A stretch of DNA of 64,000 nucleotides, taken from Podarcis muralis (lineage: Eukaryota). This document shows, piece by piece, positions 28,303 through 60,700 of the stretch. The translations under genes and the position numbers were made by a program. Position 1 is the stretch's first letter, and each line of letters opens with the position of its first letter. The notes under the pieces are model-generated. The model ran no database searches and had not been told where the DNA came from. It worked only from the letters and a program-made list of their open reading frames with translations. Where the stretch lies: the NCBI RefSeq assembly GCF_964188315.1, contig NC_135667.1:24490001-24554000 (forward strand), given 5' to 3'.

Positions 28303-30156
28303 GCCTAAACAGAATTAACTAACGCTCCCTCCCATGCCTGCTGGCACTAAGAGCTGATGCTACATTTAGTGACTATTACCTTTAAATATGCTGTCTTTTT
28401 TAAAGGGGAAAAATACTTGGTTACATGTTTGGGGGTAAGTGCCAAGGGAAGGTTGAAAGTGCCTGGTTGAGAAGGTACATGGGCTCTCGCATCTGAAGCA
28501 TATCATACCCTATGAATTTTTACACTTGAAGGTATTTCAATTGCTTGCCAACTTTTTCTAACTGGATTATAATTTTGTTCGATTAAATCCAGACTTGGTG
28601 ATGCTATTAGCAGACCCATTGACTGCAGAGGTTCTGTTACAAGTATATGACTAAATGTGAGTCCAACCCAATACGTTCGATTATAGTTGTATAATTGTGA
28701 GATCTGGTACGCCACATTGAATGGGAAATTGTGACAAAAATGGAAGTGCACAAGCCAAGTTATAAAAGACGATATAAGTATTTTATTATTCATGTGACAG
28801 TAATAACCGCAAAACCAATACTGTGTGGTGAGCTCTTATGTACATGTATGTGTATGTAGGCTTCTCTTTTGGATGTTCCATCAAACGCACAGATATTAGA
28901 AGAAGGATTGAGGGGGTATAATCTATACCCTCCAACATTCCTCATATGAAACTAGGGATATTCTGTTTACATAAGTGTCATTCCACCCCATGCCCATTAG
29001 ACAAAGTCAAGTGAACACCTCAAGCAGCAAATGCTGGGGATTGGTGAAGCGGCAGTGAGGTTGGGAGGTTAGGGCGGTGTGTACAAGGTGCCCTGCCCTG
29101 TATTAACTCATTGTATTCTTATAAGCTGTTTAGGACCATGCCCTCACAATGCAACATACAAACAAGAGCAAGGCAAGATATAAAGGTATAATAGCTACAT
29201 GACCAAACATACAACATACTTTAAGAAGCTGTCCTGTAAAACCTAATTATGACCTAAGTTAAAGGTAGCATTAAACATAAAGGTCTTCACCGCTTGCCTA
29301 AGTGCCTGTACACATGGGGTAAGGCACAAGTCAATAGGAAGGGAGGGTATGAGTTCATGATATAATAAGCCAGAAAATTAACAGTGAAATATTTGATTTT
29401 CCTATCCCTTATTTTTGCAGTCCCAAGCAGAAACCGACCTACCAAACCTTCAGGGAGCCTCTGTTCATACTGCGTGTTCTGTCTTCAATTTACGGAGGTT
29501 ACCTAATTTGTGCAGGCCTGCTGCGAATTATCCCAAATTAAAAGCATGTGCATGTGTGCATAGTGATAACAAAGTCAGTTTATACGAGCTCCAATTCCAG
29601 TTCTTACCCGGGTGCTGCTGCAAGCCACTGCCAGACTCAGGAGCACATATATATAATGGGTATAATAGTAACCTGCCATTTATTTTGGCTAAAAGAAGTA
29701 GATTGATTTTGAGCACATAACTCTGAAATTATCTGATGATATGTGTTGTGCTCTTAACTCTTAATATTGTATAGGTCACATGCAAGGACATGCAGATTGT
29801 TCTGAGTAAACAAAACTGCCTTGCAAGAAAGCTCACAATGCAAGTTGAAAATCAGTGTTGCTGGGAGCAGTTGGGACAATCCTGGATAAAATTAGAAGCC
29901 AAAATGACTTCTGTAATTCCAGGAGTGTCCTGGGAAAATTGTGACACTTGAAGGCTATGCTAGCCTCCCCACACCATGCACAAATTTCAAATAGGTGCTG
30001 GGGGGGGGGTTCATTGACAATCTGAGGGGGAAAGCATAGAATGCATGGTGGATTTGACTGTTTAAAGGAACTTTAACGGGTTAATAAATATTTATAAACA
30101 AACAATCCTATCTTCTTCCTTGTACAGGTAATGTGTGAACACGTTGTGTGAATAAA

Positions 30157-31095
30157 ATGTCCAATCTTACCTCCATGTCTACATTTCTGCTGTTGGGATT
30201 CTCAGACATTCGAGAACTACAGATCTTGCACTTTTTTGTTTTCTTATTGTTGTACTCGGTGGCAATAATGGGCAATTTTCTCATTATTGTAGTAGTTGTC
30301 TTCGATCACCACCTTCACACCCCCATGTACTTCTTTCTCATGAATTTGGCCATGATGGACCTTGGAACAATTTCTGTCATGGTACCCAAATCGATGGCTA
30401 TTTCTCTTTTAAACAGCAGGTTCATGTCTTATTCTGGATGTGTTGCTCAAGTCTTTTTTTCATATTTATTTGGAACATCAGATCTTGCCCTCCTAACTAT
30501 AATGGCACATGACCGCAATGTTGCTATTTGCAACCCACTCCAATATGAGTTAATTATGAACAGAGGAGCCTGTATACGGATGGTAGCCATTGTATGGATT
30601 ATCAGTCTTCTTAATGCCACCCTACATGCTGGTTGCACCTTTGCAAACACCTTCTGTTCTAATGCTGTCAATCAATTCTTCTGTGAAATCCCAAGGTTAC
30701 TGAAGCTTTCCTGCACTGACTTTTACTTAGTTGAAGTTGGGTTTCTTGTGCTAGGATGGAGTATAGGGCTCTGTTGCTTCATTTTCATCATCATAACATA
30801 CATTCAAATCTTTTCTACAGTGCGTAGAATCCCTTCTGTTCATGGTCAGAAAAAGGCCCTTTCCACTTGCCTGCCTCACCTCATGGTTGTCTCTGTGTTT
30901 ATGTTCACTGGAGTATTTGCTTATGCAAAGCCACCCACAGATGCTGCTTCTAATGTGGACTTAGCTTTTGCTGTGGTCTATACCATCATTCCTCCCACAT
31001 TGAATCCATTCATCTACAGTATGAGAAACAAGGAAATAAAAACTGCTATGTGGAAACTCTTAGATTATGGGCATTCTTCTAAAAATATATTTTGA
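30157..31095 (+). CDS. Olfactory receptor, OR14-like (DRN variant)
   Basis: MSNLTS start at 30157 (acceptor 30127); complete motif set; MAHDRNVAIC. Confidence 0.95.
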   Translation: MSNLTSMSTFLLLGFSDIRELQILHFFVFLLLYSVAIMGNFLIIVVVVFDHHLHTPMYFFLMNLAMMDLGTISVMVPKSMAISLLNSRFMSYSGCVAQVFFSYLFGTSDLALLTIMAHDRNVAICNPLQYELIMNRGACIRMVAIVWIISLLNATLHAGCTFANTFCSNAVNQFFCEIPRLLKLSCTDFYLVEVGFLVLGWSIGLCCFIFIIITYIQIFSTVRRIPSVHGQKKALSTCLPHLMVVSVFMFTGVFAYAKPPTDAASNVDLAFAVVYTIIPPTLNPFIYSMRNKEIKTAMWKLLDYGHSSKNIF

Positions 31096-39446: not shown

Positions 39447-40367
39447 TCAAAATATATTTTTAGAAGAATGCCCATAATCTAAGAGTTTCCACAAAGCAGT
39501 CTTGATTTCTTTGTTTCTCATGCTATAGATGAATGGATTCAACATAGGAGGAATTACAGTATAGATCACAGCAAAAGCTATATCCAGATCAGAAGAAGCA
39601 TTAGTGGGAGGCCTTGCATAGGCAAAGAGTGCAGTGCCCATAAACAAAGAGACAACAGTGAGGTGGGGAAGGCAAGTGGAGAGGGCTTTTTTCTGACCAT
39701 GTACTGAAGGAATTCTGCGCACTGTAGCAAATAGCTGCATGTATGTTATGATAATGAACATGAAGCATCCTAGTCCCAGGCAACACCCTAACACAATAAC
39801 CCCTACTTCGACAAGGTAGATATTAGAGCAGGAGAGCTTCAGTAATGTTGGAACTTCACAGAAGAACTGATGGACGTCATTTGAACAGAAGGTGATTGCA
39901 AAAGTGCTACAAGCGTGTAACATGGCATAAAGAAGACTAGCAATCAACACAATGAGGGTCATCTGAATACAAGCTCCTTTGTGCATAATTGTCTCATATT
40001 GTAATGGGTTGCAGATGGCAACATAGCGATCATGTGCCATTACTGTTAGAATGGCAAAATCTGCTGCGACAAAGAACATATAGAAGAAAACCTGGGCCAC
40101 ACACCCAGAGTAAGAAATAGACCTGCTGTTCATGATGGAATTGGCTAATGATTTGGGCATCATGACAGAAGCAGAGCCCATGTCCATCATTGCCAAATTA
40201 GTTAGGAAAAAGTACATTGGTGTATGGAGGTGATGGTCTAGCACTATTGCAGCAATAATGAGAAGATTCCCAGCCATGGTGGTCAAGTACAATCCTAGGA
40301 ACAGAAAGAAGTATAAGATCTGTAGTTCCCGTACTTCTGAGAATTCCCACAGCAGAAACGTTGACAT
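39447..40367 (-). CDS. Olfactory receptor, OR14-like, ancestral start codon lost (N-truncated or incipient pseudogene)
   Basis: About 98% identical to 52116-53051, but the ATG equivalent at 40385-40383 reads AAG; next in-frame Met is residue 7. Confidence 0.8.
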   Translation of the reverse strand: MSTFLLWEFSEVRELQILYFFLFLGLYLTTMAGNLLIIAAIVLDHHLHTPMYFFLTNLAMMDMGSASVMMPKSLANSIMNSRSISYSGCVAQVFFYMFFVAADFAILTVMAHDRYVAICNPLQYETIMHKGACIQMTLIVLIASLLYAMLHACSTFAITFCSNDVHQFFCEVPTLLKLSCSNIYLVEVGVIVLGCCLGLGCFMFIIITYMQLFATVRRIPSVHGQKKALSTCLPHLTVVSLFMGTALFAYARPPTNASSDLDIAFAVIYTVIPPMLNPFIYSMRNKEIKTALWKLLDYGHSSKNIF

Positions 40368-40516
40368 GGAAGTAAGATTGCTCTTTTTTTCTTCAATATT
40401 TGCATTTTCTCTGTTGGAGGAAGAAGCTAAAAAGTGTTAATATTGATTAACAAGCTAATTTAAGCATGCTTCTTGAAATTTCATTATATATTCCACATTA
40501 TTTTGCTAATCAAGTA

Positions 40517-45592: not shown

Positions 45593-45601
45593 TTAGGTAG
45601 T

Positions 45602-46009
45602 TGTCAGGGAACTGCCATCGGAAGGACAGGAGGTGCAAAGGCTCCCTCAGGTTGAAAGAGACGGAGCAGCTGAAGAGGGAACCAGTAGGGGGCGAGCAGG
45701 AACTTCCAGGGAAAGTGAGTCGGAGGGGTGGCTCAGAGACGTTTCCAGCGAAAACAGTGGAGAGGTCTCAGGACCTCCTATAGGGACACCCACGCCTCGC
45801 CGGAAACTGTCACGCAGAGAGTCCAGAAGACGTGTTTCCGTGAAAGAGCTTTTATGTTGGAAACGTTTCCGAAAGCAACCACTTTCGGATTCTACTAGCG
45901 ATTGACGCAGCCATGCCGGAGGGGCTCCGTCACAGGCAGAGGTTTGAAAACCTGATCAAACTCTGAGGGACTTGCATTTTACGCACAAGCAGCTCATCAT
46001 CCCACCACA
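45602..46009 (+). repeat. 5' LTR
   Basis: TGTCAGGGA...CCCACCACA; matches 50692-51099. Confidence 0.96.
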
Positions 46010-46011
46010 GC

Positions 46012-46022
46012 AATCCGAAAGT
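46012..46022 (+). other. Self-priming primer-binding site (candidate)
   Basis: AATCCGAAAGT is the exact reverse complement of ACTTTCGGATT at 45881-45891 in the LTR; no TGG tRNA-type PBS follows the LTR. Confidence 0.8.
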
Positions 46023-46055
46023 CACTGAAAGCCAGCTTGTGCAAGCAGCGGCATC

Positions 46056-47075
46056 ATGAGCGACCCAGCCGGAACCGGAGGAGCAGGAGCAGCTGGAGGA
46101 GGTCCAAGCCTGGAAGAAAGGTACAGGGCGTTGGAGATCCAGCTGGCCATGCAAACGGCGAGGCTTGAGGAGAGGAGGGCTCAGGATGCAGAAAAGGGAA
46201 AGGAGAAAACCACCTCGATAGCCAGAAAGGTGCCAGGATTGGTGCAGAAATTCGGGGGAGATCCCAGAAACTATCATGCCTTTAGAACTGAGATGCAATA
46301 CGCTCTCAATCTGCAGTATGATGACTTCCCCGACGAGGAATCGCGAGTGGCTTTTGTAATTGGCCATCTCGAAGGGGGGGCGAAGGATTGGGTTCGACCC
46401 CTGATGGCAGTGAATAATGAGATACTAAAGGACACGAGGAAGTTTTTTCGTGCCATGGACCTGATGTTTTCCAGTGACATTGAGCAGGGGGTGGTACGAA
46501 GGCAGTTAATGGCTTGCAAACAGGGGAGCCGATCTGTCCGTGAGTACTGGACTGAGTTTACTATGCTGATTCATAAATTGGGGTGGGACCTATCAGCGGA
46601 ACCCATCCAAATGCTTTTTGAAGAGGGGCTTTCTTCGGCCGTTAAAGATGAACTTTCCCGGGGGCCAAGGGCGGAGTCTATGGACCAGCTGACCAAATCC
46701 GCGCTGGCCATAGGAGCGCGCCAGGAAGCGAGAGCTTTGGAAAGGCGGGAAGGGAAAGGAGAACGTTGGAGGGAACTGCGCATTCCGGACATTCCAGAGC
46801 CACCTTTCCCGCCGGCAGAGCCGATGGAAGTTGGAACAGCGCGGGCGCGCGCAGTTTCAAATCCCAGTGAAGGGCGGAAGAAGGAGGGAAAGAGCGCCAA
46901 GAAATGTTATCTCTGCCAACAGCCAGGGCACTTTGCCAGAGTCTGCCCACAAAGAAAGGAATGGCAAGGGATGGCAGGAGCTGTGGGGGAAAGGGAGGAG
47001 GAAAACAAGGAGCAAGTAAAAGCCAACGCCTGGCTGCCACCGTCGGGGCACAGCAGCCAGGCCAAAGAGCAGTGA
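46056..47075 (+). CDS. gag: Gag (retrotransposon capsid domain plus CCHC zinc knuckle), 339 aa
   Basis: ATG 47 nt after the LTR; retrotransposon-gag-like core (RVAFVIGHLEGGAKDW...CKQGSRSVREYWTEF); CYLCQQPGHFARVC. Confidence 0.93.
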   Translation: MSDPAGTGGAGAAGGGPSLEERYRALEIQLAMQTARLEERRAQDAEKGKEKTTSIARKVPGLVQKFGGDPRNYHAFRTEMQYALNLQYDDFPDEESRVAFVIGHLEGGAKDWVRPLMAVNNEILKDTRKFFRAMDLMFSSDIEQGVVRRQLMACKQGSRSVREYWTEFTMLIHKLGWDLSAEPIQMLFEEGLSSAVKDELSRGPRAESMDQLTKSALAIGARQEARALERREGKGERWRELRIPDIPEPPFPPAEPMEVGTARARAVSNPSEGRKKEGKSAKKCYLCQQPGHFARVCPQRKEWQGMAGAVGEREEENKEQVKANAWLPPSGHSSQAKEQ

Positions 47076-50000
47076 AAGTGCCCACGCCAGAACCACCCAG
47101 ACCTGCTTTAGTGATAGAAGTGTTACTAGAGCTGCCAAATGGACACCCCCTACAGGTCAAGGCGCTTTTGGATTCAGGCAGCTCCTGTAATTTTATGAGT
47201 AAGGAGTTTGCAGCTGAGCACCAGATACAGACCATCCCTTTAAGTAATCCCTTGCAGGTGACCACGATTGATGGCAGAGAGCTGTTGGGAGGAGAAGTTA
47301 GCCAACAGACTGTCCCGATGATAATGAGGGTGGCAAGGCACACCGAACGGATAGCGTTTAATGTGGCCACCTTGGGAGGAGCTCCCATCATCTTGGGGAT
47401 GAGCTGGCTGGCGCTACACGATCCGCTAGTGGGCTGGCATCAGAGGGTGGTCTCCTTTGGGTCAGCGCATTGCCTAGAACACTGCAAGCAGGGGAAGGTT
47501 CAGGGCGGAGACAGAGTCACCCTAGCCGGGATGGAAGTAATGGGCAGAGGGAAGGTGCCCCCGCAATACGCAGATCTGAGCAACGTATTCAGCGAAAGGG
47601 AAGCAGACAAACTGCCGCCGCATAGACCCTTTGACTGTCAAATCAACCTACTCCCTGGGGCCCAACTCCCAGTGGGCAAGCTGTACGCCATGTCCGACAG
47701 GGAGATGCAGGAGCTGAGGGAGTTCATTGACAAAAACCTGAAGCGAGGTTTCATCAGAGAGTCCCGAGCGGTGGGGGGCAGCCCAGTGTTTTTTGTGGAC
47801 AAAAAAAACACAGATAAGCCGAGACTTGTGTGTGACTTCAGGGCCTTGAATGCAGTGTCGGAACCCCTGGCTTTCCCTATGCCCCGAATTGATGACATTT
47901 TGACCAGGGTAAGGAAGGGAAAGATTTTTACAAAGCTGGACCTGCGGGGGGCGTACAATCTGATACGCATAAGGAAGGGAGATGAATGGAAGACCACCAT
48001 GTTCACCCCTTTGGGAGCCTTTGAATACCTCGTTATGCCCTTCGGTCTACAAGGAGGCTCCGCGTGCTTTCAAGCGTTTATTAACCACGTTCTGGGGCCT
48101 TTGCTCTACAAGAACTGTGTGGCCTTTTTAGACGACGTGTTGGTGTATTCGGAGGATGAGGAGCAGCATGTGAGGGACGTTCGAGAAGTGTTGGGCAGGC
48201 TGCAAGCCAACCAGCTGTGGGTGAAACTGGAGAAGTGCCAGTTTCATACCAAGGAGGTGGAATTCCTGGGGTACCGCTTGTCAGACAAGGGATTGGCCAT
48301 GGATCCAGGCAAGGTCCAAGCGGTACTGGAATGGAAGACACCGAAGACCAAGAAGGATGTGCAAAGATTCTTGGGGTTTGGGAACTTTTATCGGAAGTTC
48401 ATCAAGAACTTTGCCCACTTGACGGCGCCCATCACCGACTGCCTCAGCAGCAAGAAGAAATTTGTTTGGACGGCGGAGGCGGAGCGAGCATTTGAAGAAC
48501 TGAAAAGGGCTTTCGCCTCGGAAGAACAACTTCTGCATGTGGATTTACGAAAACCCATGAGAGTGGAAACCGATGCGTCCGACCGGGCGGTAGGGGCGGT
48601 ACTTCTTCAACCGGGGAGGAGTATGTCAGAGTGGAGACCGTGTGCCTTCTTCTCGCGGAAGCTGAATAAATCCGAGAGGAACTACACGGTGTATGACAGG
48701 GAACTACTTGCCATTCACGAAGCGTTCCGGAGGTGGAGACATTTATTAATTGGGGCGCAACACAAGGTGCAAGTGTGCACCGACCACAAGAATTTAGAGT
48801 ATTGGAGAACAGCTCGAGTGCTCAACCAACGACAAGTGAGATGGGCACAGGAATTCTCTAAATTCAACTTTGAAATTTGTTATGTGCCAGGTCCAGAAAA
48901 CGTCAGGGCGGACGCTCTCTCACGCAAACCAGAGTATTGGGAGGGGGAGGGGGCGATTGAAGAGAGACATGTCATCCCTGAGGACCGCTGGGTGTGTGGG
49001 GCGGCGCTGGTGGGGCAACGAGAACTGGTAGAGGAAACGGAAAATGATGAATATGCCCAGGATAAGCTCAGAGGACTCAGGGGGGAGGGCGAGAGCCCCG
49101 AAGGTTTTGAGGAAAGAAATGGGGCATTGTATTACAAAGGGGCACTGTATATACCCGAAGGTGAATTGAGGGGGAGAGTACTCAAGCAGTTGCACGATAG
49201 CCCCACGGCGGGACATTTTGGGCAACACAAGACCATGTGGTTGGTTACCAGGGAATTCTGGTGGCCCAAGGTGAGGGAAGATGTAAGGGAGTATGTAAGA
49301 GGGTGTGACCAATGTCAGCGAGCCAAAGGGGAAAGACGGGCGCCGGCAGGGTTATTAGAACCATTACCCACACCAGAACGGCCTTGGGAAGCGGTATCAA
49401 TAGATTTTATGACGGATCTGCCGAAGTCCAAGGGGAAAACAGCCATCATGGTAGTAGTAGACCTGTTAACAAAGATGTGCCACTTTGTAGCATGCTCACA
49501 TGCAGTCACAGCGGAAGAAACAGCGAAGTTGTTTGTAGAACACATCTTTAGGTTGCACGGGGCTCCCTTGAGGGTGATCTCGGACCGCGGCAAACAATTT
49601 ACTTCCAGGTTCTGGAGGAAGCTCATGAGCTTGCTGCACGTGGAAGTCAATTTTTCAACGGCCCGGCACCCTGAAACCAACGGGCAGGCGGAAAGAGCAA
49701 ATGGCATTCTTCAACAATATCTGAGGTGTTATGTCAATGACAGAGAGAACGATTGGGTCGAAAAGTTGGCGCTGGCAGAATTTGCCTACAATAATGCGGA
49801 GAATGTGTCCACAGGGATGAGCCCCTTTTTGGCTAATTACGGGTGTCACCCCAGGGCATTTCCAGGGGAGGGAGGGGAGAGATGGAGCGTTCCAGCGGCT
49901 GAACATTTTGTAGAAGAGATGGAAGCGATCCATCATCAGCTCCAGCTCAACTTAGAAAGGGCCAAGGCACAATATAAGAAGCAGGCAGACAAGAACAGAA

Positions 50001-50995
50001 GGGAAGGTGAAACCATAAGGGTGGGGGATCAAGTGTGGCTGTCAACCCAAGGGTTGCCGTTCAAAGGGGGTTGTAAGAAATTGAGGCCCAGAAGATTGGG
50101 ACCCTTTGAGGTCATTCAGCAGGTCAACCCGGTGGCTTTCAAACTCCGGTTACCCAACCACATGAAATTGCACCCAGTGTTCCACAGGTCGTTACTGTCA
50201 CCATACAGGGGGGGACGTGAAGGGGAGCACGTCAGGGGACCAGCCTTGGAAGAGAGGGAACGCAGCAACCATGTAGCGGAAATCCTCGATTCCAGGTGGA
50301 AGGGAAATCAGGTAGAGTATTTGGTGGCGTGGGAAGGGGAACCGGAGTCAGAAAACACCTGGGTGACTGCAGGGGAGGTCAATGACGAGGTTTTAACAGA
50401 AACGTTCCACCAAAGATTCCCTAGGAAACCACAGCCGGTAGAAAGGTTTAGGAGGGAGTACTTCGGCACCACCGACGAGGAACAGGAAATGGAAGGATTC
50501 ACGGAGTCGGAGTTGGAAGAGGGAATAGACTCCGAAGACGAGGAGTATCGAGAGACGAGGGACAGTAGCAGGTGGAGGGAAGTGTTCGAAACTTCGGACG
50601 ATGAGGAAGGTTCTTTCAGGGGTTTTACTTCCTCCCAGCCCGGAGGGGAGGAGACGGGAGGGGGTGAAGGGGGCCCTGGAGGGGAGGTGGATGTCAGGGA
50701 ACTGCCATCGGAAGGACAGGAGGTGCAAAGGCTCCCTCAGGTTGAAAGAGACGGAGCAGCTGAAGAGGGAACCAGTAGGGGGCGAGCAGGAACTTCCAGG
50801 GAAAGTGAGTCGGAGGGGTGGCTCAGAGACGTTTCCAGCGAAAACAGTGGAGAGGTCTCAGGACCTCCTATAGGGACACCCACGCCTCGCCGGAAACTGT
50901 CACGCAGAGAGTCCAGAAGACGTGTTTCCGTGAAAGAGCTTTTATGTTGGAAACGTTTCCGAAAGCAACCACTTTCGGATTCTACTAGCGATTGA
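46904..50995 (+). CDS. pol: Pol (protease, RT, RNase H, integrase, chromodomain, C-terminal extension); -1 frame relative to gag, entered by frameshift rather than at the TTG shown in the ORF track
   Basis: LLDSGS protease; KLDLRGAYNL and FLDD RT motifs; ETDASD RNase H; HHCC (LHDSPTAGH...CDQC), D-D-E core, GPF motif; chromodomain VAEILDSRW...YLVAWEG...ENTWV. Confidence 0.95.
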   Translation: MLSLPTARALCQSLPTKKGMARDGRSCGGKGGGKQGASKSQRLAATVGAQQPGQRAVKVPTPEPPRPALVIEVLLELPNGHPLQVKALLDSGSSCNFMSKEFAAEHQIQTIPLSNPLQVTTIDGRELLGGEVSQQTVPMIMRVARHTERIAFNVATLGGAPIILGMSWLALHDPLVGWHQRVVSFGSAHCLEHCKQGKVQGGDRVTLAGMEVMGRGKVPPQYADLSNVFSEREADKLPPHRPFDCQINLLPGAQLPVGKLYAMSDREMQELREFIDKNLKRGFIRESRAVGGSPVFFVDKKNTDKPRLVCDFRALNAVSEPLAFPMPRIDDILTRVRKGKIFTKLDLRGAYNLIRIRKGDEWKTTMFTPLGAFEYLVMPFGLQGGSACFQAFINHVLGPLLYKNCVAFLDDVLVYSEDEEQHVRDVREVLGRLQANQLWVKLEKCQFHTKEVEFLGYRLSDKGLAMDPGKVQAVLEWKTPKTKKDVQRFLGFGNFYRKFIKNFAHLTAPITDCLSSKKKFVWTAEAERAFEELKRAFASEEQLLHVDLRKPMRVETDASDRAVGAVLLQPGRSMSEWRPCAFFSRKLNKSERNYTVYDRELLAIHEAFRRWRHLLIGAQHKVQVCTDHKNLEYWRTARVLNQRQVRWAQEFSKFNFEICYVPGPENVRADALSRKPEYWEGEGAIEERHVIPEDRWVCGAALVGQRELVEETENDEYAQDKLRGLRGEGESPEGFEERNGALYYKGALYIPEGELRGRVLKQLHDSPTAGHFGQHKTMWLVTREFWWPKVREDVREYVRGCDQCQRAKGERRAPAGLLEPLPTPERPWEAVSIDFMTDLPKSKGKTAIMVVVDLLTKMCHFVACSHAVTAEETAKLFVEHIFRLHGAPLRVISDRGKQFTSRFWRKLMSLLHVEVNFSTARHPETNGQAERANGILQQYLRCYVNDRENDWVEKLALAEFAYNNAENVSTGMSPFLANYGCHPRAFPGEGGERWSVPAAEHFVEEMEAIHHQLQLNLERAKAQYKKQADKNRREGETIRVGDQVWLSTQGLPFKGGCKKLRPRRLGPFEVIQQVNPVAFKLRLPNHMKLHPVFHRSLLSPYRGGREGEHVRGPALEERERSNHVAEILDSRWKGNQVEYLVAWEGEPESENTWVTAGEVNDEVLTETFHQRFPRKPQPVERFRREYFGTTDEEQEMEGFTESELEEGIDSEDEEYRETRDSSRWREVFETSDDEEGSFRGFTSSQPGGEETGGGEGGPGGEVDVRELPSEGQEVQRLPQVERDGAAEEGTSRGRAGTSRESESEGWLRDVSSENSGEVSGPPIGTPTPRRKLSRRESRRRVSVKELLCWKRFRKQPLSDSTSD
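47028..47083 (+). promoter_or_regulatory. Predicted H-type RNA pseudoknot (frameshift stimulator)
   Basis: Stem 1 GCCTGGCTGC (47028-37) with GCAGCCAGGC (47053-62); stem 2 GGGCAC (47046-51) with GTGCCC (47078-83). Confidence 0.7.
50678..50691 (+). other. Polypurine tract
   Basis: GGAGGGGAGGTGGA immediately 5' of the 3' LTR. Confidence 0.85.
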
Positions 50996-51099
50996 CGCAG
51001 CCATGCCGGAGGGGCTCCGTCACAGGCAGAGGTTTGAAAACCTGATCAAACTCTGAGGGACTTGCATTTTACGCACAAGCAGCTCATCATCCCACCACA
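50692..51099 (+). repeat. 3' LTR
   Basis: Identical by eye to the 5' LTR; first 304 nt lie within the pol ORF. Confidence 0.96.
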
Positions 51100-51322
51100 G
51101 TAGTGGACTAGTCATGTAGATGTAGACAGTATTTTGCAAGATAGACATATAGAAGAACCCTAATTCAGTGGTATACAAAGTGCTTTGTATGCAAGATCTC
51201 CCCATTTGACAGATGGTTTCAGGTTTGGGAGCTGCCAGTCCAACACTGTCTTCTTCAAGTGATATCTAAATGCCATATAAAACATATGTTTAACATCATG
51301 ATTATCTCTTCAAAGATTACTA

Positions 51323-51564: not shown

Positions 51565-52115
51565 TATAGCAGATGAGGGTTTGAATTAGGCCACAAGTGA
51601 TGGGACAGCTCTACAAGTGACATTAATAGCAGCTTCCTTTGTGGGGCAAAGCAACTAAAGGAAGTAGTTAAAAAACCCCCAGATAGCTTCATGTTACTGC
51701 AAGATTACTTAGAGTCCCCCAAACATGCAGACTGAGCAGAAATAGAAAATATTAGTTAATATATAAAGTTTGGAGTGAAATCAGTGTTTGAGATACTTTA
51801 GATACTTTATATAATAACAGATATGCAAGCTTCAATTTACAAATGGGCTATTTTGGCATAATCTTTAATCTCAATTGTTTTTACACTACTTGATTGGCAA
51901 AAGAATGGGGAATATATAATTAAATTTCAGGAAGCATTTTTTAAAAAATGTTCTATATTCTGATTTTAATCTGTTGGGATCAGCCCAGAGTGGCTGGGGA
52001 AACCTAGCCCGATGGATGGGGTATAATAAATAAATGATATAATTAGCTCATTAATCATTATTAACACATTTTAGCTTCTTCCTCCAACAGAGAGAATGCA
52101 AATACTGAAGAAAAA

Positions 52116-53051
52116 ATGAGCAATCTTACTTCCATGTCAACGTTTCTGCTGTGGGAATTCTCAGATGTACGAGAACTACAGATCTTATACTTCTTTCTGT
52201 TCCTAGGATTGTACTTGACCACCATGGCTGGGAATCTTCTCATTATTGCTGCATTTGCGCTAGACCATCACCTCCATACACCAATGTACTTTTTCCTAAC
52301 TAATTTGGCAATGATGGACATGGGCTCTGCTTCTGTCATGATGCCCAAATCATTAGCCAATTCCATCATGAACAGCAGGTCTATTTCTTACTCTGGGTGT
52401 GTGGCCCAGGTTTTCTTCTATATGTTCTTTGTCGCAGCAGATTTTGCCATTCTAACAGTAATGGCACATGATCGCTATGTTGCCATCTGCAACCCGTTAC
52501 AGTATGAGACAATTATGCACAAAGGAGCTTGTATTCAGATGACCCTCATTGTGTTGATTGCTAGTCTTCTTCATGCCATGTTACATACTTGTAGCACTTT
52601 TGCAATCACCTTCTGTTCAAATGACGTCCATCAGTTCTTCTGTGAAGTTCCAACATTACTGAAGCTCTCCTGCTCTAATATCTACCTTGTCGAAGTAGGG
52701 GTTATTGTGTTAGGGTGTTGCCTGGGACTAGGATGCTTCATGTTCATTATCATAACATACATGCAGCTATTTGCTACAGTGCGCAGAATTCCTTCAGTAC
52801 ATGGTCAGAAAAAAGCCCTCTCCACTTGCCTTCCCCACCTCACTGTTGTCTCTTTGTTTATGGGCACTGCACTCTTTGCCTATGCAAAGCCTCCCACTAA
52901 TGCTTCTTCTGATCTGGATATAGCTTTTGCTGTGATCTATACCATAATTCCTCCCATGTTGAATCCATTCATCTATAGCATGAGAAACAAAGAAATCAAG
53001 ACTGCTTTGTGGAAACTCTTAGATTTTGGGCATTCCTCTAAAAATAGATAA
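52116..53051 (+). CDS. Olfactory receptor, OR14-like, 311 aa, intact
   Basis: MSNLTS start (acceptor CAG at 52090); complete OR motif set. Confidence 0.95.
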   Translation: MSNLTSMSTFLLWEFSDVRELQILYFFLFLGLYLTTMAGNLLIIAAFALDHHLHTPMYFFLTNLAMMDMGSASVMMPKSLANSIMNSRSISYSGCVAQVFFYMFFVAADFAILTVMAHDRYVAICNPLQYETIMHKGACIQMTLIVLIASLLHAMLHTCSTFAITFCSNDVHQFFCEVPTLLKLSCSNIYLVEVGVIVLGCCLGLGCFMFIIITYMQLFATVRRIPSVHGQKKALSTCLPHLTVVSLFMGTALFAYAKPPTNASSDLDIAFAVIYTIIPPMLNPFIYSMRNKEIKTALWKLLDFGHSSKNR

Positions 53052-56868: not shown

Positions 56869-57770
56869 TCATGCTTTTCTTCTTATTATCTGTTCCCTGT
56901 TATTCAACTCAGGCCTCAACACAATGATATAAAATTTGGGTGCAAATATGCAGCCCAGCAACCCAGCACTAGAGGCTAAAATAGAAAAGATCTCCACAGC
57001 TACCATGTACTTTCCCTTAGAGCTTAGATAGGTTGGGATAAAGGATAACCAAACACTGCAAAAGACCAACATGCTGAAGGTGATGAATTTGGCTTCGTTG
57101 AAACTGTCAGGTAACTTTCTGGCAAGGAAAGCCACACTGAAGCTGATAATGGCCAGAAAGCCCATATAGCCTAAAACACAATAGAAGAAAGTCAGAGATC
57201 CCTCATTGCACTCCAATATAAGTTCTTCTCTTACTGAATGAATGTCAACATCTGGGAATGGGGGAGAAGTTACCAACCACACAAAGCAAATGCCTGCTTG
57301 GATGAATGAGCAGGGAAGAACAATGGAGTTAGCTAATGACTTCCCCACCCAATTCCTCATGCTGGATCCCGGTCTGGTGGCCATGAAAGCCAGGACCACT
57401 GTGGTGGTTTTGGCCAACACACAAGAAACAGCTACTGAGAATATGATTCCAAAAGCAGTTTGTCGGAGAAGACATGTCACCTTCTGTGGCTGGCCAATGA
57501 ATAGCAATGAACAAAGGAAGCAGAGCAAGAGGGAGACAAGGAGAGTGTAGGTGAGGCCCCGGTTGTTGGCTTTGACAATGGGAGTGCTGCGGTGCTTCAG
57601 AAATGTTGCTAGCGCCAGAGCTGTGATCAAGGAAGAGAAAAGGGCAAAAAGGGCTAAAGCGACCCCCAGTGGTTCTTTGAAAGACAAGAAGGAAGCCAGT
57701 CTGGGAACACAGGAATCTTGGTTCTTGCTTGGATAGCTTACGTCACTGCATTTGGAACAGTCATTCATAT
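56869..57770 (-). CDS. V2R exon 6 (7TM domain)
   Basis: Acceptor TTTTCAG|AT; [29 protein letters not shown] motifs. Confidence 0.95.
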
Positions 57771-60700
57771 CTGAAAAGGGAAAGATAGGTGCTTTATGCC
57801 GCCATCTCTGCTAGTTCAAGGCAACCGGAGGAACACCAAATGGATACAATGCAAAGGAATGGTTATGTACCTTTTTATGTTCATCTGGTAACACTCTAAT
57901 GTTTAAGGAGAAGGTGGGGGCAGGTGAGATTTACATCCTTTGGAGCAATAAACATGTAGCCTGCATCTGCTGCATTGTCACTTGCTTCTGCTTTCTGCTG
58001 CTCTATCTTTGGTGTGCTCTGTTGTTTATCAAGAAGGTTTGACATCATTTGGCAATATATTTCTTACCGTGTTGGACTGAAATCTTCCCTTCTGGACATG
58101 GGATGCAATCATAGCAGCAAAATGGATCCCCTTCCTTCACTTTCTTGCTAAAACCAGGACGGCAACTTTCACTACATACAGAATGAGGCTTTGCCTAATC
58201 CACAAATGAAAGAGGACCATGTAAGTATTAAAGAACAAAAGAAGAACAAAATATGGCTCAAGGTGGTACCACCTCCGTTTTACTCCAGCCCTGCCCACTG
58301 AAATTACTAGCAATTGGCTCCTACCTGATTAAACCAGCTGTGCCACGTTATGGCACTCTCATTGAGGCTGAATACATTGCCCAGAAGACCTTGGGGGTCC
58401 ACCTGTCCAACTTTCACTCTATGAAAGGATTGGTTTGAAGAAAAAATCCAGTTGAAGATGTCAAATCCAGCTACTAACTCCCCATTCTGGTCAAAGGAAA
58501 CCTGGTCACCAGCACTGTTGTTAAAGGAGACTCTTCTCAGAAAGTGATGGAACTAGAATGCAAAGGGAAATGTAAGAGTGTAGGGCATGATGCATTTTAA
58601 CAGTAGTTCATTGAATCTTTTAGATGGAGTTATAAAAATGCTTTCCCTTGATGAAGAGATGTCCCCCCCACCTCTACTCCCCTTTCCTCAAATTGCAGTA
58701 TAGCAATAACCAAATGAGAAAGAGTATTCATACATTTAAAGTTTACTTTTGAGAAGCTTCACTGAAATCTTTTTAGTTATTCCTGACTGGTAGCCTCCTT
58801 AAATACACCTAGAAACAAATGGTTTCTCACGTTATTATTTAAAACAACAACAACAGTTTTTTGAGTATATAATTGTTTAAAAGAGTAGATAATATCTTGG
58901 TCTCGATATAGTTAGATACAGACATCCTTTTTCCTACTTCATAGAGAAATGACGTAATAGGAAATTGGGAGCCATATGAAGTTTGGGAGTCAGTTCACTT
59001 GGCTTTTTGAGCCTGGTGGAATGTGTGCATAGACAAGCTAGGTGCTGTACTCCTTGGGTCCATTACCTGCCAGAACTGTAGATTCCAAAGGTTCATCCCC
59101 CTTTCATCCCCCATTGCTCTGTATGGGAGTCTAGATGAGAACATCGTTTGTAAAGCATAGGCCACAGCATAGACAGCGTTGTAGATGCTGTAGCTGTGGC
59201 CAATCATCCTTGTTTCAAAAAAGGGCCCCGGAAGACTCTTCAGTTTCTCTTCCGCAGTACAAAAATCTCCACCCAATCGCTCAGTTACTCTATTTGCAAA
59301 TATACAACCAAATGCTTGTTGCCAGAAGTCCAGGATAAAGCCATCGCCTTTTGCATTCAGAGGCTTCCTATTCTCAACATAATGTTGAAATCCTGAAGGA
59401 TCCTTGGAGTGAATTGAGAAGGAGAGAGCACCATGGATCATGTCTATACTCCAAGTCCTTTGATGTGTGATAGATGTGAGCTCCATCTGGGCTGTCAGTA
59501 TCCACACAATACCTTTTTCTTTATTTGTCACATGTTGTTGTTCTGACAGGTATGAGAACCATCTCAATAATATAACTGAAAAAGATTCTCCATAGGCAAC
59601 CACTGCATTGGCTTTACCATCAATAATTTTATCATGTATTTTTGCCCCCTGAGTTAACATGCTATTAATTTCAGTGACAATTCCTTGTGTGTGACTTCTT
59701 TCTATGAAGGCAAAACAGATACCACTCTGGGAGAAAAGTGGAAATACAGTTTGGACAAATCTATCTCCATATTCATCATTGGTAGTAAGGATTCCAATCC
59801 ATATCCACTTGAAATGCAGAAGCAAAGAGAGAATCCCTGCATACTGAGTGGCTTCCTGAGGTGCCATCTGGTAAAAAGAAAGGCCTGGGGTTTTGTCATT
59901 CATCACTGGAGCAGGGCTATATATGAGCTAAAGGAGGTGTGAAGGAGAATAGAGAATGAGAGAAGTTCCACCCCCCCCCCTATTTGAAGTCTTCAAAGTA
60001 ATCTACATTCATCAAATGAACAATTCTTATAACTCTCTTGGAACGTTAAAATTGTATTCTTCCCATGTAGCATTTTGGCTTCAGTGACAAGTTACTGAAA
60101 CGTTACGCAGCTACTCTACTACTAGGGAAAATTCACTTTCCAGATGAGGTGTAGAAGAGGACCCCTCTGACTCCCACTCCCCTTCCAGGACCCCTGATGA
60201 CACTGTGGTAGGACCCTTATCCAGACCTCTGTGCTGATGTTCCACTTCTGCCAAATTGGAGGCTTCCTCCTTCTCCCCTTCAGAACAATCCTGCCAACCT
60301 CACTGTGTCCTGATTGTCTTCATGGGACCCATGATAAGTTTATGCTTTTAAAGTACATTTCTTAATTCAGATTTACAGATCAATTCAGCGGGCTGTATTG
60401 CTTGGCTTAGATTTGATGTCCATCTCTTTATAAGGAAAATCTACCTGTTTGCTCCAATTGTACCTCCTTCTGTCCCTTTCACCCTTTGTCTGCCTCTAAA
60501 AATCTGGAAGGATCTGTCCTACCTGTGGAATCTTGTAAATATCCAAGACTGTTGCCATGTGCAAGGAGGTCAGTGGGTCCAGTCCTCCAATAACTGCAAT
60601 GAGGTTATCCTGGATGTCACATTTGTAGTTTGGGAGATGTTTCCATGGTGTGAATATAAGTAGCAATGTAGCATGGTAGGTCCCTTTGGCAGTGAAATAG

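Follow-up and report, generated by a model that had tools for sequence, protein, structure and literature searches.

Read-through of pol into the 3′ LTR and candidate LEDGF/HRP2-binding motifs in a self-priming Gypsy chromovirus of the lizard Podarcis muralis

INTRODUCTION

The retroviral nef and sag genes are coded in U3 and overlap the promoter region of the 3′ LTR, but they are separate genes, whereas LTR coding in the lizard element described here continues pol. A sequence-only reading of this locus had regarded U3 coding as known mainly from retroviral accessory genes; these are indeed examples, but plant CRM elements already have LTR-coded integrase ends, so the generalization does not stand. 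Entry of pol into the 3′ LTR is known in CRM group A and in some beet chromoviruses (parts of PMC3059260 and PMC3605345). As in CRM group A (CR motif/CHDCR), pol of the lizard element crosses the polypurine tract (PPT) and the 3′ LTR codes for the integrase C terminus, proposed in CRM to be a targeting domain (parts of PMC3059260, PMC3605345, and PMC6317226). According to the same parts of these sources, the plant elements use a tRNA-Met primer-binding site (PBS), have the CR motif in place of the chromodomain, and are clustered, whereas the lizard element has a vertebrate host, primes itself, keeps its chromodomain 5′ of the PPT, and is dispersed along the five contigs surveyed (C1-C5). The likeness is most likely convergent.

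Self-priming is known for Tf1-type elements (parts of PMC4600332 and PMC6317226). With the Tf1/sushi V-clade (Sushi-ichi, Amn-san), as covered in part of PMC6317226, the lizard element shares Gag, the PR-RT-RH-IN order, SH3_Tf2-1, a chromodomain, a 5-bp target duplication, and a self-priming PBS. To this plan it adds a 187-aa post-chromodomain tail, 100 LTR codons, and two FxGF motifs, and its chromodomain cage is degenerate. The fish and other pol matches inspected finish at or shortly after the chromodomain.

A TND-interacting motif (TIM) combines a helix, an acidic Ser/Thr linker of 8 to 16 residues, and FxGF (PMC9987994, section 6), and FxGF is carried by all known LEDGF and HRP2 partners according to the part of that review used here. 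The lizard motifs resemble the TIMs of JPO2, IWS1, KMT2A, POGZ, and JIL-1 in their hydrophobic segment, acidic Ser/Thr linker of 8 to 9 residues, and FxGF, and also in their tandem copies and disordered context (parts of PMC9987994 and bioRxiv 10.1101/624023). Unlike these host motifs, they are candidate binding motifs on a retrotransposon integrase; POGZ, for its part, is a DNA-transposase gene that has been domesticated rather than an active LTR element. Lentiviral integration is positioned through the same host domain that is predicted to serve the lizard element (parts of PMC9987994, PMC10854676, and PMC6382798), but lentiviral integrase uses a prefolded surface, whereas the lizard element would rely on the short linear motif that the host itself uses.

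Among the titles and abstract openings searched, mostly of non-subscription papers, none points to this lizard family or to a retrotransposon integrase with TIM or FxGF motifs. Family descriptions in Repbase/GyDB could already mention the long ORF. The main text of PMC3601003, which deals with LTR structure including Sushi LTRs, contains neither "ORF" nor "open reading frame." The LTR-coded integrase end itself is already known from plant CRM, and the probable LEDGF-type docking motif is the new part.

RESULTS

Architecture of the element

The window is the whole 64,000-nt stretch analyzed (P. muralis assembly GCF_964188315.1, contig NC_135667.1, positions 24,490,001 to 24,554,000, forward strand), and all coordinates below are positions within it. 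A single intact LTR retrotransposon with LTRs at both ends occupies positions 45602-51099.

45602..46009, plus strand: 5′ LTR, 408 nt, TG...CA, with target duplication GTAGT ahead of it at 45597-45601
45881..45891, plus strand: self-primer, 11 nt, complementary to the PBS; putative transcript 5′ end and R start
46012..46022, plus strand: primer-binding site (self-priming), directly 3′ of the 5′ LTR
46029..47075, plus strand: gag ORF (Retrotrans_gag/Ty3_capsid, zf-CCHC)
46871..50995, plus strand: pol ORF, −1 relative to gag; protease, RT, RNase H, integrase, SH3_Tf2-1, chromodomain, 187-aa tail
50273..50416, plus strand: chromodomain (Pfam Chromo, aa 1135-1182), first and third aromatic cage residues missing in this copy
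50441..50500, plus strand: TIM-like motif 1; hydrophobic segment, Thr/acidic linker, MxGF in this copy
50573..50626, plus strand: TIM-like motif 2; WxxVF, 9-residue Ser/Thr/acidic linker, FRGF
50678..50691, plus strand: polypurine tract, translated in the pol frame as Gly/Glu/Val codons
50692..51099, plus strand: 3′ LTR, 408 nt, followed by target duplication GTAGT at 51100-51104
50693..50878, plus strand: U3-coded acidic, Ser/Gly-rich spacer, 62 aa (13 D/E, 7 K/R), predicted disordered
50879..50965, plus strand: U3-coded basic block, then a predicted short helix with an invariant Cys-Trp
50971..50995, plus strand: putative R start in the 3′ LTR, with the self-primer copy (50971-50981), the final codons, and the stop (50993-50995)

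The PR-RT-RH-IN order, flanking LTRs, and 5-bp target duplication are those of Ty3/Gypsy chromoviruses. The pol frame comprises 1374 aa from stop to stop (46871-50995) and overlaps gag in the −1 frame at 46871-47075; its Pfam Chromo match, at the integrase C terminus, scores 32.2 bits (cut-off 25.1). The two LTRs are identical across their aligned part. The start of R was placed at 50971 because an 11-nt stretch there complements the PBS, which puts the Cys-Trp codons of this copy (50945-50950) at −26 from the inferred start. This 11-nt match between the PBS and the R 5′ end is the mark of self-priming, and the two segments pair in MFE and centroid folds alike; the 5′ leader fold as a whole is not significant (z-score −0.18). 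Self-primer and PBS covary in five sequence variants (the window element, L031, L104, L107, and L123), and despite this covariation the 3′ self-primer copy remains within the coding frame, so the putative R start would double as primer and coding sequence. The element is thus a Gypsy chromovirus, young, intact, and self-priming, probably of the Tf1/sushi type. Its nearest named proteins are from Podarcis muralis and match at 96%, 89%, and 73% over the C-terminal 345 residues of pol.

Read-through in this copy and among its relatives

The sequence-only reading held that pol stays open across the PPT and U3 and stops 25 nt into R. This is what we find: the first full codon inside the 3′ LTR lies at 50693, 100 codons precede the TGA at 50993-50995, putative R runs from 50971, and the basic peptide quoted in that reading occurs in the translation exactly as written. 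The other two plus-strand frames contain 3 and 6 stops across the LTR. Dinucleotide shuffling (20,000 trials) nevertheless yields a 100-codon open frame at a rate of 4.1% for the U3 stretch and 6.2% for the entire LTR, so the read-through of a single copy is only suggestive, and it is the divergent relatives that carry the evidence. The 187-aa post-chromodomain tail matches no Pfam family and was assigned to none in ESM Atlas and PDB profile searches. Pfam likewise has nothing matching the ORFs antisense to the LTR and tail. No AATAAA occurs 3′ of the pol stop in this copy.

The family is very young, in that all 40 scored matches show 100% identity over 900 nt (at least 40 copies), and exact PPT-LTR junction matches for the clade of this element, termed here the TIM clade, number 309. 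Because such copies are identical, they are useless for dN/dS, and divergent subfamilies were used instead. A search with a 73% relative, whose ranking favors intact tails, supplied 36 elements; a search with the SH3 domain only, which is blind to the tail, supplied 30 loci plus 20 longer stretches, most of the latter chosen for long open frames. Both LTR starts were located in 50 of the 57 elements examined. The frame is open to Cys-Trp in both LTRs of 42 of these 50 and in the 5′ LTR of 48; it is broken in the 3′ LTR only in six, in the 5′ LTR only in none, and in both LTRs in two. The 3′-LTR-only breaks are postinsertion changes or assembly errors. One of the two elements broken in both LTRs has the same early stop in each (L109; the other is L108), and copies lacking the tail in cis can therefore insert, which argues against a strict cis requirement.

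In the 30 SH3-ranked loci, many of them old and decayed, a 3′ LTR start was found in 25 and an open frame through Cys-Trp in 15, and the Cys-Trp hexamer, searched independently of frame, was present in 21 and in phase in 17. This frame-independent count takes the place of an argument from the triplet spacing of nine U3 length classes (16 representatives), which was set aside as circular, the representatives having been chosen for an open frame. Families down to ~73% integrase identity read 70 to 125 codons into LTRs with unalignable middles, and the lengths of noncoding R-U5 differ by nontriplet steps (126-132 and 149 nt). Maintenance of the ORF, proposed earlier as a check on the read-through, is thus evident in most relatives, and a stop ahead of the LTR is not the rule.

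Several structural variants were recorded along the way. One subfamily (L031-L040) has a 75-nt in-frame duplication in U3 and an LTR of 483 rather than 408 nt. Recurrent single-base indels in G runs, located in U3 of the 3′ LTR only or in the PPT, cut the tail in L052-L054 and L129-L131; these are slippage hot spots or assembly errors. An LTR-type peptide coded on a 680-nt contig (P0155) diverges further and likewise ends in a basic Leu-Leu-Cys-Trp. Tail-profile searches matched only Podarcis-labeled proteins and two contig proteins, in predicted-protein databases that contain few intact lizard retrotransposons.

Selection on the LTR-coded stretch

For five pairs sharing no branch on the integrase tree, dN/dS of the LTR-coded stretch is 0.25, 0.26, 0.35, 0.29, and 0.23; dS is saturated in a sixth pair, and all pairs are significant (Fisher p 4e-3 to 8e-10). 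The independence of the pairs is only approximate because subfamilies recombine. Within one pair, dS differs up to ninefold among RT, integrase, and SH3 (window pol versus L057, L031, and L041), an unevenness pointing to probable recombination between subfamilies. The range of 0.23 to 0.35 indicates purifying selection on the LTR-coded stretch, as the dN/dS check suggested in the sequence-only reading was meant to reveal.

Codon positions concur. Across the final 39 codons of eight subfamily copies, variable columns at positions 1, 2, and 3 number 21, 14, and 34 of 39 (p = 8e-6). Extra synonymous codons outnumber extra amino acids by 46 to 28 when this segment is read in the pol frame, whereas the counts are 13 to 64 and 13 to 62 in the other two plus-strand frames, which also contain stops; composition does not account for this excess of synonymous change. 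The stop codon itself interchanges among TGA, TAG, and TAA at one position across subfamilies, and of the 25 elements examined, 11 have their pol stop at +22 relative to where the self-primer begins. The claim that promoter DNA doubles as code therefore gains footing from dN/dS and codon positions alike, both of which place the LTR codons under protein-level purifying selection.

Constraint is uneven along the protein. Within the tail it is strongest over the final 45 codons (dN/dS 0.08-0.18 in four more distant pairs). Among the more distant pairs the acidic spacer, which changes length freely, evolves faster (0.32-0.53), and the core enzymes stand far below the tail (0.03-0.11). Such a gap between tail and core would be expected where folded domains adjoin a disordered tail. 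Read-through and selection are real, with very little room for doubt. From these substitution patterns we infer that purifying selection maintains, on the pol frame, a protein-coding tail that finishes with the 100 LTR codons.

Tail motifs and chromodomain

Four blocks of the tail survive across families: the two TIM-like motifs, the PPT/LTR junction, and the basic Cys-Trp end, which has 12 K/R in 28 residues by composition. The U3-coded acidic spacer differs in length from subfamily to subfamily. Each TIM-like block consists of a hydrophobic segment, a Ser/Thr-acidic linker, and FxGF, with linkers of 9 residues in motif 2 and about 8 in motif 1, within the 8 to 16 residues of an acidic Ser/Thr TIM linker. 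FxGF is exact for motif 2 in 14 of 16 representatives (absent or altered in the other 2) and for motif 1 in 11 of 16, where M or L replaces the first F in 5, this copy among them. The F, G, and F positions show synonymous codon variation. The W and F anchors of motif 2 are invariant in 17 aligned copies picked by that very pattern and nearly invariant in the cross-family alignment. The motif pattern is missing from all 23 other scanned matches of the protein search with the pol C terminus. A shuffle value of 0.0004 for the TIM pattern was not used, as the pattern had been written after the motif was seen. The AlphaFold model of the tail has a mean pLDDT of 55 and one helix, over Cys-Trp; in this free model motif 2 has no more than a 3-residue helix, and motif 1 lacks one.

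The third cage aromatic of the chromodomain is missing in all 16 representatives and the first in 14 of 16, so the three aromatics of a type I chromodomain (H3K9me reader) are not assembled here. Loss of cage residues is the type II state (parts of PMC3059260 and PMC6317226). The TIM-like motifs and the degenerate chromodomain together are the best clue to the role of the tail.

Predicted complex with LEDGF

The lizard's own LEDGF exons and protein were found, and the integrase-binding domain (IBD) was folded with motif 2. The complex scored 0.44 versus 0.01 for the best of three controls and was graded as weak support; runs agree in at least 85% of contacts, with partner pLDDT of at least 57. 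In a calibration set devoid of peptides and disordered chains, 51 of 78 solved pairs attained the mark, as did 2 of 108 mismatched pairs; only 5 of the 78 solved pairs passed at scores of 0.60 or below, a range that took in all 4 of the passing mismatches, and 0.44 falls in the range that the tool calls more often wrong than right unless the complex is likely beforehand. Like complexes have been solved in the PDB (6emo, 6emp, 6emq, 5yi9, and 6emr), and the pass may therefore reflect memory, indicating likeness and not binding. A motif 2 profile searched against the PDB did not retrieve these LEDGF-partner chains at E values up to 10.

A sister clade in the same genome

A second clade with 55% RT identity and 207 exact junction matches (L067-L070 and L124-L133, e.g., G000:C14:2438500-2445500) carries a tail unrelated to that of the TIM clade. 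It reads 111 to 118 codons into an LTR of 635 to 730 nt, acidic first and basic last, and its pol stops just 5′ of a TATA-like GATAAAA. LTR-coded dN/dS is 0.39 in one pair (p = 0.008). All three cage aromatics are kept and the TIM pattern is absent. Frameshifts in the PPT G run affect 3 of 10 full copies. The tail ends in an Arg-rich RRSARL stretch, which may resemble nucleosome acidic-patch anchors, and tandem repeats of variable length lie 3′ of the R start. In a tree built without a named Sushi or Amn reference, the TIM clade, the sister clade, and a Naja protein group together at 91/90. Read-through may be ancestral to the two clades or convergent.

Genomic setting and RNA

The 96 TIM-clade junctions listed on C1-C5, contigs on which centromere positions are not marked, fit a uniform spread (KS p = 0.59), and a centromeric concentration of the CRM type is not seen there. 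Sister-clade junctions on C1-C5 lie nearer to chromosome ends than uniform (KS p = 0.002; post hoc, partial). The two spreads differ (two-sample p = 0.016-0.03) in a post hoc comparison of 96/309 and 54/207 junctions that includes tandem copies and is confounded by age. The old, decayed copies from the SH3 search are mostly on contig C20 of G000, perhaps a low-recombination chromosome.

This copy adjoins olfactory-receptor genes (ORFs 52065-53051, 39447-40436, 30139-31095, and similar). Segments 39452-40467 and 52034-53049 are 97% identical inverted copies flanking the element, and class C GPCR (vomeronasal-type) exons at 56869-59927 adjoin the olfactory-receptor cluster. Raw RNA reads from four runs in two studies cover the element thinly, with a strand bias in two bulk runs that fits sense RNA. 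Read starts or ends do not pile up at R in these four runs, and 34 to 47% of the placed reads continue into unlike sequence.

DISCUSSION

In our main reading, to which we give a probability of about 0.55, integrase retains the 187-residue tail, predicted to be disordered, as an arm for targeting, and the two FxGF motifs of this arm would attach to a host TND protein, for example, LEDGF or HRP2. Gag-Pol would arise by −1 frameshifting on an RNA that begins within the 5′ R and includes the 3′ U3-R, and the tail would be translated from the 3′ LTR only. The protease would leave the tail attached to integrase, and the TIM-like motifs would engage the integrase-binding domain of LEDGF/HRP2, perhaps once CK2 had phosphorylated the Ser/Thr-acidic linkers. 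Docking would replace methyl-lysine reading by the degenerate chromodomain and bias integration to transcribed chromatin. U3 would act as an elastic spacer, and the basic block and helix might serve nuclear import or contact with chromatin or DNA. Reverse transcription places copies of U3 in both LTRs, so the promoter and the tail would have to evolve together. A broader proposal, that the clade traded a methyl-lysine-reading chromodomain for tandem mimics of LEDGF/HRP2 motifs and built the rest of its tail from its own promoter, is tentative, at somewhat below even odds. The olfactory-receptor neighborhood, no obvious H3K36me3 target, and the uniform spread over C1-C5 count against a tether of this kind.

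Selection on the tail might have other causes. With the tail still on integrase, the selected job could be nuclear import or direct nucleosome/DNA binding by the basic end, and FxGF could bind another TND elongation factor or an element protein. The strong constraint and Lys/Arg richness of the final codons would suit that role, as would the low LEDGF complex score and the sister clade, whose unrelated tail is also basic at its end, lacks TIMs, and is itself constrained. We consider it unlikely, however, as it leaves unexplained two FxGF motifs kept across families with unalignable flanks, and all known FxGF-bearing TIM partners in the review (PMC9987994, in the part cited) are LEDGF/HRP2 binders. 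Cleavage by the element protease would instead turn the tail into an accessory peptide, for example, one associated with membranes or particles through the basic Cys-Trp helix, or a chromatin factor aiding the element's own transcription. An invariant Cys-Trp in a predicted amphipathic helix between basic residues and a long disordered linker open to protease are compatible with this product, and retroviral U3-coded proteins are separate products. It appears distinctly improbable given an alignment with no conserved internal start or recognizable cleavage site, and the LTR-coded part of plant CRM is described, in the parts of the literature cited above, as the integrase C terminus.

Two further explanations dispense with a selected protein. 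The frame might be open only to bring the stop near the RNA 3′ end, for stability, with the Cys-Trp and basic codons kept as core-promoter and self-primer DNA. The Cys-Trp hexamer does lie at −26 to −31 from the inferred transcription start, a TATA-like core-promoter distance that counts against pure protein constraint, and the free length changes and faster evolution of the acidic spacer point the same way. DNA-level constraint would, however, suppress all three codon positions alike, and third positions vary in 34 of 39 codons, including those for Cys (TGT/TGC), Arg, Lys, Phe, and stop, which largely refutes this explanation; moreover, the distance from hexamer to start differs by 5 nt between families, and dN/dS is well below 1 over the entire LTR stretch, leaving it with very little credence. 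The other explanation is that a purine-rich U3 happens to be open in a young family of nearly identical copies; 4 to 6% of shuffles are open, and at least 40 identical copies carry no independent information. That scenario is barely credible against read-through down to ~73% integrase identity, selection in every pair tested, and nine U3 length classes in one phase among representatives chosen for an open frame.

If the broader proposal of a traded chromodomain is true, a retrotransposon would for the first time reach the lentiviral chromatin tether through a short linear motif, and promoter, primer, and protein would offer a natural example of evolution within a single DNA stretch. Insertion-site choice of animal Gypsy elements is poorly known, and the finding names a concrete candidate for the host partner. 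A comparison is built into the lizard genome, where two young clades coexist, one with TIMs and a broken cage (309 junctions) and one with an intact cage and no TIMs (207). The LTR-coded integrase end, so far known mainly from plant centromeric elements, occurs in vertebrates, and the LTRs and solo-LTRs of such families bear a coding signature that annotation and LTR-based dating ignore.
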